Notes under the pieces: model-generated
What the model saw: the letters and a program-made list of their open reading frames with translations, nothing else
Databases searched by the model: none
Told to the model about the DNA's origin: nothing
From: Catajapyx aquilonaris
Lineage: Eukaryota
DNA length: 20,000 nt
Direction of reading: 5' to 3'
Assembly: GCA_000934665.2 (NCBI GenBank)
Contig: JYFJ02001944.1
Span: 46,038 to 66,037, forward strand
Shown: positions 1 through 20,000 of the stretch, one piece after another
How the letters are laid out: each line of letters opens with the position of its first letter
Numbering within the stretch: the stretch's first letter is position 1
Translations under genes and position numbers: made by a program

Positions 1-108
1 AACTTAATAGTATAATTCAGCTGGGTTAGCCTGAAACAAAATGTGAGAAATGTCGAGACACCATATCTGTATGATCGTAGCAATAAAATTCATTTTTGCT
101 ATTCGCAG

Positions 109-699
109 AAACTTAATCTGGACCCAGGCAAGTTCCTGGAGCTGGAGCTGGAGGCTTGGCTTCTGCAACAGCTGCTCATCCTTGGTTCGAAGCGGGACCA
201 GAAGGTGATTGCGACTCCGAAGCAAGGCTACCTGGTTGTCCCGAAGTCCCAGGCGGAGGTCGACTCTGGCTCATTCCTTGTCGACCCGTCGCTCGTCCCG
301 CTTGAGCAGGGATCAAAATTGGAGCCGGACCCACCTGACCTGGAGGAGAGTCAGCATGATTTGTCTGCACTCTTCCATGCGTGGCATCAGAGCCTGCAGG
401 CTGAAGTGTCATCATTTGCGGCTGGAGAGACTCAAGTTAGAAATCTGTATCAGGAGATATCGAGGATGAGCCCGGAGGAGTGGGAGGCCAGCAGGGTCAG
501 AGGTACAGAGGATGTGGCTTCGTCAATTCAGAAGGAGCTCTCGATGTTGAAATGCGAGGAAGACGAGCAGGTGCCAAATCCGCCCCTGGTGGCCAAGCTG
601 GAGGAAGAGGCGCAGGCGCTTGAAATGATGATCGTCGAGGATAACTGGACAGAAGATTCCATGCAGCATTTCTACCCATCTAATGAAGTGCAAGAATAG
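109..699 (+). CDS. Terminal coding exon of an unidentified protein (acidic, probably helical C-terminus); earlier exons lie outside the window
   Basis: Acceptor TTTTTGCTATTCGCAG ends at 108. The open frame KLNLDPGKFLELELEAWLLQQ...HFYPSNEVQE runs to TAG at 697-699 with GC-rich codon usage, then an AT-rich 3' UTR follows. Family not recognised. Confidence 0.75.
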   Translation, partial: KLNLDPGKFLELELEAWLLQQLLILGSKRDQKVIATPKQGYLVVPKSQAEVDSGSFLVDPSLVPLEQGSKLEPDPPDLEESQHDLSALFHAWHQSLQAEVSSFAAGETQVRNLYQEISRMSPEEWEASRVRGTEDVASSIQKELSMLKCEEDEQVPNPPLVAKLEEEAQALEMMIVEDNWTEDSMQHFYPSNEVQE

Positions 700-1274: not shown

Positions 1275-2044
1275 TATTGTCCAACGCAGTGATCGGTGCA
1301 GTAATTTGTTTACTTCTGCAGCGACCCATCATGTGCCTTCGGTGAAAATCTTTTTAGCAATTCAGTTCGGATCACACTATACTTTAATAGCTAAAATTGG
1401 TGCGAAAGCCCTGAGGCACAATTATTATATTATTCCCCTCAGATACGCCCACAAATAAGACTACCTGTACGTCAAAACAGTAAAAACATTTTGTAACCTT
1501 GCATGTGAATATGGTAGGCCCCTTATCTTGTTTGATTATGAGCACTTGAAGCGAGGATAAGATGATCAGTCAGACTTTTTTGATGCCACAACTTCAGATT
1601 TATAGAGCATGATGAGGTAATTAATTTCAAATTGCGAATATGGAGCATGTGAGTTACGCTGCAGCAAAGTAGAGCAGACGTGGATTTTTATGCTCTAAAT
1701 TAAGTAATTAATGACGTTGGTGTAATATTTTAGCATTTTTTTTTTGAAAAATCATTACAGGTTACAGGGCTGTGGAAGTGAATCTTTGGTTGACTCGTCG
1801 TACTTGATGTAAGTAATATTTTTTTTTGGAACATTGTTGCTGTGTATCAGTATGCGTCACATACTGTGAACGCTGGCTGATTCCCCCACACACTTCAAGT
1901 AAAAGTGACGCCTCTGGATTATTATCAGCATGTATGTGTCTTGCCAAATGCAACTCTTGATAACAAGAGTACCTTGAACCATATTTGCTCATTGTAACAG
2001 CCTAGTTGCTGGTTGTCACTCACACCGTTAACATTCAACCAAAG

Positions 2045-2096
2045 ATGGGCAGCTGTTATCTTCTGGGCTTCGTGGCACTGGCCTTAATCGCCACAG
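2045..2096 (+). CDS. Multi-domain defensin-like (CS-alpha-beta) secreted protein, exon 1 (signal peptide)
   Basis: AAGATGG start context; encodes MGSCYLLGFVALALIAT plus 1 nt; donor CAG|GTAATT, phase 1. Confidence 0.85.
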
Positions 2097-2315
2097 GTAA
2101 TTTCTAGGTTAATCCAGGATTTTACTAACACAAGGTGGTGCAAAACCACAAGTATAATGCGTATTGTGCTGTAGGACAAGTTATAAAATAACAATTTAAT
2201 TACTCCATACAATTCAATGGTGTATATTCGGATTGTTATCCACATAAATCATTCCTAAATATTTTCTTCACTATGTAAATCATTCACAACCAATCCTTGA
2301 ACTATAATTATACAG

Positions 2316-2446
2316 TGAGCTCCCTTCCAACTGGTGGTGGTACCATCCTGGTGTACCAGTCCAAAAATGGCGAAGACGTGTTCATAAAGGCGTACCCGGC
2401 TGGGTACAGCAAGTGCATGAAGACGTGCGTTGACAATGGCCAAGAT
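2316..2446 (+). CDS. Multi-domain defensin-like protein, exon 2
   Basis: Acceptor TATACAG; in frame from exon 1 gives VSS|LPTGGGTILVYQSKNGEDVFIKAYPAGYSKCMKTCVDNGQD (likely signal cleavage VSS-LP); donor GAT|GTAAGT, phase 0. Confidence 0.85.
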
Positions 2447-2566
2447 GTAAGTAATCACTAAGCAACAACCTCTGGACGTAATCTCGAGGTCATCATTGTC
2501 ATCATCATCATCAACAGCCGTAATCACTTGTTTTGTTTGACGTCAATCAATTTGTATATCTGAAAG

Positions 2567-2821
2567 GCGTGCGACCACAGATGCAAGAATCCGCAGGAGG
2601 TGCTGAAGGGCATCTTGTCCAACTGCACTCAGGAGGAATACGATGCTTGTGTCGATTACTGCCACTCCGTTGGTATCAACTCGACCACGTGTTTCGGCGA
2701 TGGGAACTGCCTGTGCGTCGAGATGTACGGAAACGACCTGCTGAAGACGAAGATGGCCAAGCAGGAGACGGAGGAAGAGTGTGAAGACTGCGACGCATAT
2801 TGCGACCAGCTTCCTTCGCAG
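2567..2821 (+). CDS. Multi-domain defensin-like protein, exon 3
   Basis: Acceptor TGAAAG; ACDHRCKNPQEVLKGILSNCTQEEYDACVDYCHSVGINSTTCFGDGNCLCVEMYGNDLLKTKMAKQETEEECEDCDAYCDQLPSQ; donor CAG|GTATAC, phase 0. Overlaps ORF 2600..2866. Confidence 0.85.
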
Positions 2822-2921
2822 GTATACACTATACACACCTGCGTAGTCTTAAAGGAAATTAAATAAATTCAAGGGCATGACGCACACCCATCAGTGTGAC
2901 CGCACATTTTAATAATTACAG

Positions 2922-3059
2922 GAAGTGACATGCAGCCCTCCCGTCGGATGCGAATGCGACTCGGACGAAGCCGGTACCATGTACCTGCTAGGTGACGACA
3001 AATGCACGCCAGAAGAAATACAAGAGTGTCACGACCGATGCGTCGACAACGGATTCAAG
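2922..3059 (+). CDS. Multi-domain defensin-like protein, exon 4
   Basis: Acceptor ATTACAG; EVTCSPPVGCECDSDEAGTMYLLGDDKCTPEEIQECHDRCVDNGFK; donor AAG|GTCCGA, phase 0. Completes the domain 2 cysteine pattern. Confidence 0.85.
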
Positions 3060-3113
3060 GTCCGAAACTAATTTACGTATATAATAACACATAATTATTA
3101 TAGAAGCTCTATT

Positions 3114-3680
3114 ATTTGTTCATTTCATACCCATCGAGAAGAAAATACTGACCTTATTCGATTATTGTGGGTATGAAATGGACAAGCAAACAAACTGTGT
3201 CGAATTTTCGTCCCACTGCTATACGCGTAGTTAGCCTACTGGCTAACTTAGCAGTACCAGTGCCAACATTATTATTGACACTGCTAAGTTAATAGCAGTA
3301 ACTATAGCAGTGCGACGAAAATTCCACCCATCGTCTTTTATAAAAGCTTTTTTTTTCTTTCCATTTTACACCTTATTATTCATACCCATAATAATAGAAT
3401 AGTGTTTTCTGGGTATGAAATAGTAATGAATGGTGGACAAACAAACAAACTTATATAAAAGACAATGTTCGTTTGCTTGTCCATTTCACATCCATAAGTT
3501 ATTATACCCATAATAACCGAATAAGTATATTATTTTCTTCCTGATGGACCGGACAAACAAACTTTTATCCTTTATAAAAGCTTGTTTGTTTGTTTGTTTG
3601 TTTGTTTGTTTGTGTGTTTGTTGTCCATTTCATACCCATTTCATGCCCATAATATAATTATGAACCATTTTCTTCTTCAT
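3114..3680. repeat. Cluster of about four degenerate short foldback units in intron 4
   Basis: Recurring TTTG(C/T)TTGTCCATTTCATACCCA and its reverse complement TGGGTATGAAATGGACAA(A/G)CAAAC; TTTATAAAAGC spacers; (TTTG)n at about 3582-3620. Confidence 0.6.
3196..3330. mobile_element. MITE-like palindromic element
   Basis: Terminal inverted repeats GTCGAATTTTCGTCCCACTGCTATA / TATAGCAGTGCGACGAAAATTCCAC (2 mismatches) and an inner pair AACTTAGCAGT / ACTGCTAAGTT. Confidence 0.65.
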
Positions 3681-3713
3681 GAGAGTTGATACAACCAGTT
3701 TTTCTTGTTACAG

Positions 3714-3755
3714 GACGGCACGTGTCTGATCCCAGGCTTGTGCTCATGCGCTTAA
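3714..3755 (+). CDS. Multi-domain defensin-like protein, exon 5 (terminal)
   Basis: Acceptor TTTTTCTTGTTACAG; DGTCLIPGLCSCA* completes domain 3 with exactly the spacing of domain 1; AATAAA follows at 3801. Confidence 0.85.
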   Translation, partial: DGTCLIPGLCSCA

Positions 3756-3800
3756 ATCGACCTGATAACATCTGAAAGTTGAAGTGTTGAACCAATGGTT

Positions 3801-3806
3801 AATAAA
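3801..3806 (+). terminator. Polyadenylation signal of the defensin-like gene
   Basis: AATAAA 45 nt after the stop codon, followed by a GT/T-rich tract (TTGTGTATGTTG). Confidence 0.65.
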
Positions 3807-3935
3807 AATCGGTGCATTACAATATTGTGTATGTTGCCTTTTTTAAAACAAAAAAAAATGTCCGTTAGTGGCCCCTCGTGTGCTGCCTACATTAAAATCA
3901 AGCCTCTCTTTCTGTGTGTGTGTTTCATTGGAGCG

Positions 3936-4042
3936 AGGAAAAGTGGAAGTGTGGCGCATGCGCTGTTTGAGGGAAGGTTTAGAGCGGGTGGTCGCAAACC
4001 ATGGAAGGAAAACTAGGGTCGCCCTCAGATCTCTTTTCAGTT
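3936..4042 (+). promoter_or_regulatory. Candidate promoter of the sushi/F-lectin gene
   Basis: NRF1-type palindrome GCGCATGCGC at 3954-3963, an ETS-core GGAAGT just upstream and Inr-like TCAGTT at 4037-4042. Confidence 0.5.
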
Positions 4043-4145
4043 GACGGTTGAGGGTCGAGGAAGTGAGTTGTTGAGCTTTTTTCCCCCCCTTTTCCTTTTC
4101 CCCCCCATATGGCCTAGAGCTGGACACGCGCTCATTTGCCTACAG
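4039..4145 (+). other. Candidate non-coding first exon (1a) of the sushi/F-lectin gene
   Basis: Follows the promoter motifs and ends in a consensus donor CAG|GTGAGT at 4145/4146. The start is inferred from the Inr. Confidence 0.5.
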
Positions 4146-5799
4146 GTGAGTCGTGGTGTTATAAGCACATGTACATTATAATAAGAAATTATATGCTAAT
4201 ATTTGGTGGCGCCTCAGGGTCGCTCCTTGCTTACACACGTAAATGATAAGAAAAAAAAAGTTTGTTTGTAAACGAGGTCTAACGGAAGGATGTTCAAAAA
4301 ATTAAGCCAAAATAGTTCAATTTAATTTTCTTTGTTACTTTGGTTTGTTAACAGTCTGAGCTCTCCAATTGGGAAAAGTAACAGTTTGATATAATATTGC
4401 TGTAATATATCGTATGTGCAGGATGGTACAGTACCCAAGTACAAGATCATAAAAAGGCTAAGTGAACAGGCTGTTGACCCCAGTAATTAGTTTGAAGAAA
4501 AGAAAATCTGTTGGAAGAAACTGCCACATAAGGCCTACTCATCTAATAATAATAATAATGGTTCGCTTAAAAACAATTCGTCTTGTCACAAACATTTAAC
4601 TTTAATTGCACAATTGTAGTCATCAGCGTCTTGTACTGTCTTATCGTGTATGCTACATATTTAGTATTAAAAGTTGTAGGTTTTGGTATGTAGCCTTCGA
4701 GTGTATTTACCCCTCCGGCTATTTACGACGCTATTGCTCTCCCACATTTTTTTGAAGTGAAGGGCGCCTTTTTTTGATGATATCTCAGCACCTTTTATTT
4801 ACAAAAATTGATCAGTTTTTGCATTCGAATTTTCCTCAATAATGTTAGCACAGAGACTAGCCTGTAATAGCCTGTATAGGAATACACTTTTATCCAGCTT
4901 TTTTATTGTAATACTTTATACAAATATTTTTGATGCCATTCCCTTCAACCTGAACTTTTTTTCGTCCATGTTCTGTTTAAGTGTTGACATGTTATTTTTT
5001 ATAACTCATAAAATGATGTACTGAATCCAATTTTAGGCGTTGGTTCCATCTTTTGTATATTTAAAAAAAACACGCTTTAAATTGCTCGGTACGTTTAACA
5101 GTATTGTCTCGAATAGCTGTGACGCAACAGAGGGTTATACCGAACAATCCGACAAAAAATTTAGACAAAGTCTCCACCTCTCCAAAAAATTGTGAAAGCG
5201 TCTCAGTAATACACGAAATATCCTTGTACTTGCCAAGGATTCTTCACATATGAGACAATGATAATAAAAAAAATGTCAGTGCGGTTTTCTCGTGAATCAC
5301 ATCAGAAAACTGACGGAATTTTCTCGAAAAAAAAGAGACCACACACTCGCTGATGACATACACGCAGAGATTATTTTTTTCCCTCCACACATCCTGCTTT
5401 TGAGTGTCTAACAGTGAGTTTACTTTTCTCCGAGGTATATATCGAGGGTGTGTCTCCCGAGTGTGAAGAAATGAGATACCACGTGAAGGGAAACGATAAA
5501 AATAACGCAAGTTTTTCAACTCGACGAAAAACTTTAGGGGGGTAGAATTTTTTTCTATCTGACTCAGCTTAATGTGTGTGTGCTGTTTTGAGGGTTGTCA
5601 GAAATTTTTGGCAAGCTTTGGGAATCTGGTATCGTAAAAACGTCGCGTGTGAGACGCGCTGATTACTAGGTATCTTTATAGGACAAAAAAAAATAATGAG
5701 AAGAAAAAAATCCGACCTTGTTAACCACCTTCAATCGCAAGTTCAGATAGCAATTACTGCACTTGTGTAATAAGAAAAGTGTAGGAAAAATCTCTGAAG

Positions 5800-11354: not shown

Positions 11355-11577
11355 ATCATAAAATAACTTAATAAAATATTACAAAAGATAATTAACTTAA
11401 TAGCTAGCTAATAAAATAACGAAATAAATAACTAAAATAACTATAAGTAAAAAATTAAAATTAAAAATACAAAACTGATAAAATAACTAAACAGCTAATA
11501 AAATAACTGAAATATCTAATAAAATAACTAAATAACAATTAAAATGAATAACTAAATGAAATAAAGTATAAATAATA
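11355..11577. repeat. AT-rich low-complexity (AAATAACT-like) tract
   Basis: Direct reading. Confidence 0.6.
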
Positions 11578-18430: not shown

Positions 18431-18889
18431 CTATATTTTATACCTTACTCATACTGTCCAAATATTAATAATTTTCGGTCTTGTACCACCCCTGGCCATG
18501 GCTGTATTTCCTAGATTTCACTTCACGATCTATACGATTGCACATTGAAAGCCTGTTTACCCAGCAATTGAAAGGGCGGTGCAAATAATAGAGGAGCAAC
18601 AATTGCATCTCCGGTGCGAGAAAATGTGTGGGTGTAGACGTGGGCGGCAGGGTTTAAATGTCGGCGGTAAGTGTCAAAGTCATACAGAGTAATCAGCACA
18701 CCGGAAGAAATTACGGGCACGTTTGATTAAATTTGTCGGTTATTACAATGAGCGAGAAAATGGCGGCGGAAATTACCGGTAATTGTTGAAAGGTGCGTAT
18801 GAATGAAAGTGTTGACATTTTCCTGAATGCTTTGGTGATTAGTGATTACTGCCGTTTTTGTTAATTAAAATGAAGACAAATATTTGCAG

Positions 18890-19075
18890 GTATGCAGCCA
18901 AAGCAATGCGGTCCTCCGGGTCGTCCTGCCAACGGATCAGTGAGCAACGGACCTTCCTTGTACTATCCCGGAGAAGAAGTCCGGTACTCATGTGACCACA
19001 GCTTCGTTCTGATCGGCACAGAGGTCAGGAGGTGCCGAGACGACGGAACCTGGACAGGACGGATACCCAGATGCG
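18890..19075 (+). CDS. Sushi/CCP domain exon of a furrowed/CG9095-like protein
   Basis: Acceptor TATTTGCAG; QCGPPGRPANG...YPGEEVRYSCDHSFVLIGTEVRRCRDDGTWTGRIPRC has the four Cys and the Trp of a CCP domain; phase 1-1 exon; donor G|GTATGT. Confidence 0.9.
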
Positions 19076-19143
19076 GTATGTCACCCTTTGGTGCTAATAA
19101 TTTCAGTTCAATCTAGTGCCAAATGTGTCATACACTGGTCGTA

Positions 19144-19239: not shown

Positions 19240-19264
19240 TAAGGGAACTGTTTTATGTCCACAG

Positions 19265-19453
19265 AACTGAACGTGGCCAAAGAGAAGGAAGCTCGACAAT
19301 CAGCGACCCTCTGGAGCTACGCGGCCGAACTGGCTGTCGATGGAAACCCTGAATCGTGCAGTTTCACCCCCAAGAGTGTGGACAACCGTTGGTGGCAGGT
19401 GGACCTCGGACAGATGTACGACGTGGAAGCCGTTGCAGTCACAATCAGTCAAG
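19265..19453 (+). CDS. F-type lectin (FTP/fucolectin-like) domain exon, N-terminal part; the gene continues beyond the window
   Basis: Acceptor TTTTATGTCCACAG; ELNVAKEKEARQSATLWSYAAELAVDGNPESCSFTPKSVDNRWWQVDLGQMYDVEAVAVTISQ shows the NVA..QS..AVDG..C..T..WW.VDLG F-lectin signature; probable donor AAG|GTTGGA. Confidence 0.85.
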
Positions 19454-19770
19454 GTTGGAACTATTTCTCACTATTTTCAACCCCGTGTTAATAATTGCCA
19501 ATTATTACAAAACACATCCCGGACGGACGTGGAGCATATTAAACACGCCCGGAACAAAAAGGGGGTCTTCTGGTCACCGCCGCCGGTAGAGAGAGAGATT
19601 CGAAGTTAGATGAACCCCAGGGGCCAGAACTAGGTCACTGAACGTCCGGGAACCAACCCATTGTTACGAGAGGGTCTTCTCTCGCACATGGAAAGGGAAA
19701 GGATTGTTTTTAAAAAAAAGTACTATAGGGATAACTATTAAATCTGAAAGAAAATTAAGAAAAAAAATAT

Positions 19771-20000
19771 GCGGTTCGAGAAACATTCGCTTCGCTCGCA
19801 TTTTTTTCCATGCCTGCGGTTCGAGAAACATTCTCTTCGCTCGCATTTTTCCATGCTTGCGGTTCGAGAAACATTCGCTTCGCTTGCATTTTTTTCCATG
19901 CCTGCGGTTCGAGAAACATTCGCTTCGCTCGCATTTTTTCCATGCCTGCGGTTCGAGAAACATTCTCTTCGCTCGCATTTTTCCATGCTTGCGGTTCGAG
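19771..20000. repeat. Tandem minisatellite, 43-45 bp unit, at least 5 copies, running off the window
   Basis: GCGGTTCGAGAAACATTC(G/T)CTTCGCTCGCAT(5-7)CCATGC(C/T)T with units starting at 19771, 19816, 19859, 19904, 19948 and 19991. Confidence 0.9.

Follow-up and report, generated by a model that had tools for sequence, protein, structure and literature searches.

A transcribed gene of Catajapyx aquilonaris, apparently an orphan, that encodes a predicted secreted protein with three tandem anionic defensin-like units

What would be the use of a protein that joins three six-cysteine units of defensin-like spacing in one chain and gives each of them a negative charge? The question is raised by a locus of Catajapyx aquilonaris at positions 2045-3755 of a 20,000-nucleotide stretch of genomic DNA (assembly GCA_000934665.2, contig JYFJ02001944.1, positions 46,038 to 66,037 of the forward strand; hereafter the window, in whose numbering all positions are given). 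An earlier note, made from the sequence alone, had described at this locus a five-exon gene for a secreted protein with three tandem anionic domains of the cysteine-stabilised alpha-beta (CS-alpha-beta) type. The locus is a real five-exon animal gene, spliced and transcribed, and its architecture is very probably as we describe it. The reading that we prefer is that the product is a secreted, unprocessed, three-module anionic binder; for that statement as a whole, including the functional class, we put the probability at roughly 0.55.

Joined at their coordinates, the five exons (Table 1) give 618 nt, which is 205 codons followed by TAA, and the coding frame is unbroken across all of them. Each of the four introns begins with GT and ends with AG. 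Intron 1 is in phase 1 and introns 2-4 are in phase 0; introns 1-3 measure 219, 120 and 100 nt, and intron 4 measures 654 nt. Exon 4 ends six residues past the third cysteine of unit 3, and read-through at its donor would reach a stop after three codons, which would leave unit 3 with half its cysteines. The candidate exon 5 follows an AG acceptor with a pyrimidine-rich tract and restores the x9 loop of unit 3 (x3-C-x5-C-x-C) in the same way as happens in unit 2. It is also the sole + strand occurrence of C-x5-C-x-C downstream of exon 4 in the window, barring a match at 3595 that lies within a (TTGT)n run. Intron 4 contains 23 inverted-repeat pairs, for example those with arms 3131-3174/3504-3547 and 3168-3185/3621-3638; when the repeats and the microsatellite are subtracted, about 115 nt remain, a length similar to that of the neighbouring introns.

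Transcript support comes from Logan contigs of a public run, X1 (32 million letters), whose kind is not on record. The run contains 0.42 of the sampled words of 2000-3850, and its contigs were placed on 1500-4500. A single contig of 546 nt, with a depth of 320 and 0 mismatches, spans 2312-2446, 2567-2818 and 2919-3057 with no intron. It omits 120 and 100 bases, both with GT..AG ends, and this orientation places the transcript on the + strand. The second joint is listed as 2818|2919, and a cut three bases rightward, 2821|2922, fits equally well; two of the four junctions, 2446|2567 and 2821|2922, are seen in this one contig exactly as predicted. The 5' end of the contig carries 18 extra letters, and the bin 2005-2105 has a depth of 57, which equals 319.9 x 18/101. 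The 18 letters probably lie on 2079-2096, the end of exon 1, in which case junction 1 is implied by this depth arithmetic. Introns 1-3 have no X1 cover, therefore what X1 contains is the spliced form rather than the genomic one, and we have taken the contig to be RNA-derived. The lack of X1 cover for 2045-2078, exon 5 and the 3' untranslated region is a blank and not evidence. Of the junctions on which the earlier gene model depended, introns 2 and 3 are directly vindicated, junction 1 is implied and junction 4 is uncovered.

The encoded protein is rich in cysteine and, in its mature form, strongly acidic. Of the 23 cysteines among its 205 residues, 18 belong to the three units at six apiece, four to the N-terminal region and one to the leader. 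Residues 4-17 are strongly hydrophobic, with Kyte-Doolittle 9-residue means of 2.2-2.9 over residues 4-11, which suggests a leader of about 20 residues that would be cleaved after Ser20. The mature chain of about 185 residues would contain 34 Asp+Glu against 13 Lys+Arg, with an isoelectric point (pI) of 4.19 and a net charge of about -21. The acidity is found in units and linkers alike: Asp+Glu over Lys+Arg is 5/0, 6/0 and 6/2 in units 1 to 3 (net charges of -5, -6 and -4), with no Lys or Arg at all in units 1 and 2, and the linkers of 21 and 15 residues have net charges of -3 and -4. The N-terminal region (residues 21-80), at +1, is the sole part that is near neutral. Sequons for N-glycosylation are present at N80 (NCT) and N99 (NST). 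In all these respects, namely the five-exon model for 205 residues, the signal-peptide-like leader, the three six-cysteine units with their spacings, the acidic counts of 5, 6 and 6 against 0, 0 and 2 Lys/Arg, and the two sequons, our recount agrees with what the earlier note had claimed.

The cysteine pattern of all three units is C-x(7/2/7)-C-x3-C-x9-C-x5-C-x-C, and each unit has the C...C-x3-C...C...C-x-C arrangement that characterises the CS-alpha-beta, or cis-defensin, class. From the second cysteine on, the spacing C-x3-C-x9-C-x5-C-x-C of all three units is the insect-defensin spacing. In the six-frame translation of the window the full six-cysteine pattern appears a single time, in unit 1, which is unspliced, and 200 block shuffles yield none. 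The half pattern C-x5-C-x-C is present six times in the window against a shuffle mean of 0.6, and three of the six matches are the second halves of units 1-3 in the correct frames. The matches at 1143 (+), in AT-rich non-coding sequence, and at 3595 were set aside as chance. The N-terminal region has a different pattern, C-x3-C-x7-C-x3-C, to which we return below.

Whether the units fold as their cysteines suggest was addressed with models of exon-internal pieces only, that is, unit 1 alone (39 aa, 2618-2734) and exon 3 (85 aa). The single-sequence AlphaFold2 model of unit 1 has a predicted local distance difference test (pLDDT) score of 84.8, and all five models lie at 82-85. A helix at 5-17 carries C-x3-C, and strands at 22-27 and 30-34 carry C4 and C-x-C; the model combines a helix with an antiparallel beta-hairpin, as is typical of the CS-alpha-beta class. 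When it was compared with the PDB by Foldseek, 26 matches were obtained at an expectation value (E) <=10 and none at E<=0.001, the best having E 0.69, with template modelling (TM) scores of 0.45-0.68. Defensins and scorpion K+-channel toxins, which belong to one fold class, account for 24 of the 26 if one goes by the titles, among them drosomycin (TM 0.57/0.52), insect defensin A, Centruroides defensin, tamapin, scyllatoxin, agitoxin, nasonin-1, oyster defensin and plant defensins. Among 48,161 representative chains searched with VIA-align, the best Z of 3.5 belongs to AtLURE1.2 and mytilin; defensin-type peptides fill seven of the first ten rows and 18 of all 50 listed, with unrelated chains interleaved, and the neighbours include entries of the pollen-tube attractant, self-incompatibility ligand and channel toxin kinds. 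The exon 3 model (pLDDT 68.3) likewise places the C-x3-C of unit 1 in a helix and C4 and C-x-C in a hairpin; beyond these come one more strand and, across the first half of unit 2, another helix. In Foldseek it gave nothing significant, with drosomycin at rank 22, and its VIA-align neighbours were mostly unrelated alpha/beta folds at Z<=4.5; the single-unit model was used instead. The earlier CS-alpha-beta assignment is sustained for unit 1 to this extent: the modelled fold and its neighbours form a coherent picture that argues weakly for the class and falls short of statistical significance.

Searches for relatives returned nothing that we could accept. Exons 2-4 have no Pfam family at E<=1, and the profile Defensin_2 (PF01097) is unmatched. 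With the 85-residue exon 3 peptide as query, phmmer against 1.84 billion protein representatives gave two matches at E<=0.001, which are unrelated repeat proteins of similar composition and were rejected. The same peptide gave seven candidates, none at E<=0.01, in the 'longer' setting of a word-indexed search, no candidate in its 'near' setting, and no usable match in the ESM Atlas. A metagenome scan with it produced 42 pattern matches and one tblastn candidate, rejected as a 13-residue coincidence in an unrelated frame. The two matches of unit 1 to PDB sequences, both at E>1, were put down to chance. A local tblastn search of the window with the spliced protein recovered the gene alone, with no paralogue inside the window. 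The gene is apparently an orphan, in the sense that nothing was detectable in these searches, which short cysteine-rich domains easily escape.

The nearest parallels are to be found at the level of architecture. The X-tox proteins of Lepidoptera, as they are presented in the part of the account that we draw on (PMC2728511), have 3-11 cationic motifs with the consensus C-x4-C-x3-C-x7-G-x-C-x3-K/R-C-x-C; examples are Spod-11-tox, Gall-6-tox and a three-motif X-tox of Heliothis. They are described there as secreted by haemocytes on infection, without conserved cleavage sites or antimicrobial activity, with a function that is still open. The same portion of that source has them yield no bioactive defensins and reports them from Lepidoptera only. 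Their arrangement is that of a 'defensin rosary'. Like these proteins (PMC2728511), the Catajapyx product would be a single secreted chain of tandem, imperfect CS-alpha-beta motifs joined by spacers without conserved cleavage sites, would not serve as a reservoir of antimicrobial defensins and would have arisen by lineage-specific duplication of a defensin unit. X-tox as set out in PMC2728511 also differs from this protein. The domains of X-tox are cationic, whereas the Catajapyx units are anionic; C1 and C2 are separated by 7, 2 and 7 residues instead of four; C4 and C5 are separated by 5; no K/R precedes C5; and G-x-C before C4 is present in one of the three units. There is no X-tox among the phmmer matches, in a library whose X-tox content was unchecked.

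The second parallel is with nasonin-2 and nasonin-6 of Nasonia vitripennis, which according to the sections of PMC2853521 on these genes have 4-5 tandem defensin-derived domains, each encoded by one exon and bounded by phase-1 introns. Common to both systems (PMC2853521) is a small defensin-derived disulfide domain repeated within a secreted protein by duplication at the level of exons, and nasonin-1 is a structural neighbour of unit 1 in both Foldseek and VIA-align. Unlike in the nasonins as described there (PMC2853521), the phase-0 introns of the Catajapyx gene cut the helix-to-strand loop in two of the three units and in the degenerate N-terminal unit, and a single exon carries the closing part of a unit together with the opening part of its successor. 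The nasonins have no sequence match to this protein. With single-domain arthropod defensins such as insect defensin A (PDB 1ica) and drosomycin (1myn), which are among the best Foldseek neighbours, the protein shares the predicted helix and two-stranded sheet. Those defensins are a single domain with a cationic mature peptide, in contrast to three domains whose net charges are all negative, a pI of 4.2 and predicted N-glycosylation here. In the plant defensin MtDef5, as covered by the part of PMC5700942 concerned, two cis-defensin domains are likewise linked in one chain, by a short linker; MtDef5 is a highly cationic, antifungal protein with eight-cysteine domains, and no relationship is implied.

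The X-tox consensus, the cationic character and the nasonin exon rule all fail for the gene, which therefore stands outside the X-tox and nasonin families but follows the same building principle. Anionic defensins are also known: AfusinC is an anionic CS-alpha-beta defensin with activity, on the evidence of the passage concerned in PMC6181372, and an anionic defensin-like gene of Bombyx is cited in the relevant portion of PMC2853521. In the open-access literature that we searched, we found no anionic tandem CS-alpha-beta protein and none with introns inside its units. The earlier suggestion of a possibly undescribed multi-domain family was therefore too broad where it touched on tandem or anionic defensins as such, which are published; what is new is the particular combination of anionic and tandem, in a family without a detectable relative.

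The gene structure itself suggests how such an array may have been assembled. Introns 2, 3 and 4 are each in phase 0 and each lie exactly six residues past the C3-equivalent cysteine, so that the position is occupied in the N-terminal region, unit 2 and unit 3, and only unit 1 is without an intron (3/4 units). Units 1 and 3 are identical at 7 of 27 non-cysteine positions in the same register (permutation p ~0.0007), and the final 19 residues of exon 2 are identical to the first half of unit 3 at 5 of 17 non-cysteine positions (p ~0.001). Outside its cysteines, unit 2 resembles the other units no more than would be expected by chance (p ~0.29). By these sequence comparisons, the N-terminal C-x3-C-x7-C-x3-C segment is read as a decayed, degenerate fourth defensin unit, and the gene as one expanded by internal duplication. 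The shared phase-0 intron sites together with the non-cysteine identities point to growth of the array by intron-to-intron duplication of a module. That module would have begun with the latter half of a unit, continued through a linker and closed with the opening half of the following unit, as exon 4 does. Subsequent loss of one intron would have fused two modules into exon 3, and the first unit would then have decayed to four cysteines, so that it may now resemble a C-x3-C / C-x3-C helical hairpin.

The proposed mode of action starts from these features. The protein would enter the endoplasmic reticulum and the secretory pathway by means of its leader, form 11 disulfides, three per unit (C1-C4, C2-C5 and C3-C6) and two in the N-terminal hairpin, and be glycosylated at or beside unit 1. 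It would then be exported as a single acidic chain of three rigid beads connected by flexible acidic linkers. Across the 205 residues there are no dibasic (K/R-K/R) pairs, and since convertase sites of this kind are lacking the chain most likely stays whole, as does X-tox. The modules are anionic and therefore cationic attack on microbial membranes is an unlikely mode of action, which makes the earlier proposal of a role other than cationic membrane lysis a reasonable one. Members of the fold class that are not microbicidal act by specific protein recognition, as pollen-tube attractants, self-incompatibility ligands, channel toxins and enzyme inhibitors. Because of this and of the anionic surface, we favour a disulfide-locked multivalent extracellular binder, which might act on a protein, a cationic ligand, or a metal or mineral surface. 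By analogy, the closest functional counterpart would be X-tox, which in the account cited above (PMC2728511) provides a precedent for an unprocessed, non-antimicrobial tandem CS-alpha-beta protein.

Of the alternatives, the one that fares best is an intact anionic antimicrobial or antifungal effector, acting for example by cation bridging or by binding of a cell-wall precursor. The defensin-type predicted fold of unit 1 would suit it, and AfusinC (as described in part in PMC6181372) and the Bombyx gene (as cited in part in PMC2853521) are anionic precedents. It is nevertheless unlikely, given that the net charge of about -21 extends over the whole chain with its linkers, that no Pfam defensin model matches, and that the nearest architectural analogue, X-tox, has by the account in the part of PMC2728511 used here lost antimicrobial activity.

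Acidity could also be explained if the protein were associated with extracellular matrix or mineral, as in cuticle, eggshell or a calcified structure, with the defensin modules serving as stable beads. The pI of 4.2, the 34 Asp+Glu against 13 Lys+Arg, the acidic linkers and the leader would all fit, as would the high depth of the X1 contig, although depth is not an expression measure. The protein has no Asp/Glu runs, however, its acidity being moderate and evenly spread, and as there is no Pfam match of any kind, no chitin-binding domain was detected; we regard a matrix role as quite unlikely.

A toxin-like function, in which a salivary or venom protein on a scorpion K+-channel toxin scaffold would modulate ion channels or enzymes of another organism, is brought to mind by the structural neighbours of unit 1, most of which are such toxins. 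The K+-channel pore blockers of the CS-alpha-beta fold depend on basic residues, whereas units 1 and 2 lack both Lys and Arg. The similarity is moreover to a fold and not to a toxin family, with no sequence match among PDB sequences or in Pfam. A tandem bivalent toxin from one arthropod venom, mentioned in the portion of PMC9950431 at hand, shows that such an arrangement exists, and we still consider this explanation improbable.

The earlier note had also allowed for a polyprotein, that is, a precursor that would be cleaved into three separate defensin-like peptides. Precursors of several peptides are common among invertebrate antimicrobial peptides, and three complete units with linkers between them could be taken for one. 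The same absence of dibasic sites, and acidic linkers that are not conserved as cleavage modules, speak against this option; X-tox, which has the same build, gives no bioactive defensins according to the part of PMC2728511 concerned, and we hold cleavage into peptides to be very unlikely. Least probable of all is a look-alike cysteine pattern, either on another disulfide-rich fold or in a young gene without settled function: it would be in keeping with the lack of a significant structural match, the possible bias of single-sequence models and the lack of a homologue that could show purifying selection, but the exact insect-defensin spacing C3-x9-C4-x5-C5-x-C6 in 3/3 units, the predicted placement of C-x3-C in a helix and C-x-C in the last strand, and the intact frame of a transcribed and spliced five-exon gene all speak against it.

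The preferred reading, a secreted and unprocessed anionic binder, has its own difficulties, which we gather here. The RNA nature of the X1 contig follows from the missing introns of a run whose kind is unrecorded. That contig ends at 3057 with two unaligned letters, 3714-3822 has no X1 cover, and junction 4 and exon 5, unconfirmed in X1, are put forward from sequence logic alone. No structural match is significant (Foldseek E>=0.69, VIA Z<=3.5), which we attribute to the domain being too small. The model of unit 1 is alignment-free, and AlphaFold2 may merely have recognised the cysteine pattern; the predicted fold moreover concerns unit 1, as units 2 and 3 are split by introns. Pfam has no defensin or toxin family that matches unit 1, exon 3 or exon 4 at E<=10, and since no relative was found there is no conservation that would speak for selection or function. 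Finally, the role as a binder is a predicted one.

Table 1. Features of the tandem-unit gene, in window coordinates.
Feature	Position	Strand	Content
Exon 1	2045-2096	+	Start codon and hydrophobic leader, 17 codons plus 1 base; followed by the phase-1 intron
Exon 2	2316-2446	+	N-terminal region, ending in a degenerate first half-unit (C-x3-C plus 6 residues)
Exon 3	2567-2821	+	Second C-x3-C, whole of unit 1 (2624-2716), acidic linker 1, first half of unit 2
Exon 4	2922-3059	+	Second half of unit 2, acidic linker 2, first half of unit 3
Intron 4	3060-3713	+	Nested inverted repeats resembling miniature inverted-repeat transposable elements (MITE-like), ~3116-3654; (TTGT)n microsatellite, 3582-3622, scored as (TTGT)10 by Tandem Repeats Finder (TRF)
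Exon 5	3714-3755	+	Second half of unit 3 (x3-C-x5-C-x-C), one Ala, TAA
AATAAA polyadenylation signal	3801-3806	+	45 nt past the stop codon, read from the sequence

Loose-ended X1 contigs of low depth align to the inverted repeats of intron 4, therefore copies of the element exist, and are perhaps transcribed, elsewhere. Toward the far end of the window, open frames at 18874-19116 and 19243-19491 (+) match the Pfam families Sushi (E 4e-13) and F5/8 type C / NedA-like galactose-binding (E 4e-9 and 2e-7). These are probably exons of a gene for a multi-domain extracellular protein that runs past the window end, and their presence marks the genome as metazoan. A tandem array at 19770-20000 (45-nt unit, 5.2 copies, 92% matches, also scored with an 88-nt period) reaches the window end, is open in several frames on both strands and is probably a satellite or minisatellite. 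At the opposite end, a 227-codon open frame at 16-699 (+) occupies the most GC-rich part of the window (GC 0.46); its best Pfam E of 0.14 is not significant, and an upstream gene may have its last exon here. The stretch from 4 to 18 kb is gene-poor and contains 20 of the 22 other open reading frames of at least 70 aa that were tested, none of the 22 having a Pfam match at E<=0.01. An AT-rich tandem repeat (unit of ~20-24 nt, ~7 copies, 72-88% matches) lies at 11409-11575, and no tRNA genes were found in the window.

As for what the gene means, defensin-fold modules are nearly always single and cationic, and tandem arrays of them exist in few lineages, with their function still open. We tentatively entertain a more far-reaching scenario, which goes beyond what we would defend as probable: the protein would be the first known of an undescribed family, restricted to one lineage, whose defensin scaffold was multiplied along a route of its own, separate from X-tox and the nasonins, and became acidic. 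It would then be a non-microbicidal binder or neutraliser of cationic partners, such as the animal's own or microbial cationic peptides, a metal or a mineral face, and the intron in the loop would record the growth of the array. The gene is transcribed and has no match in the protein collections searched, which suggests that annotation misses it. Its intron-in-loop layout may be read as a clean record of growth by intron-to-intron module duplication. If the anionic three-unit array did arise independently, it would represent a second or third natural experiment on a multiplied defensin scaffold that does not kill.

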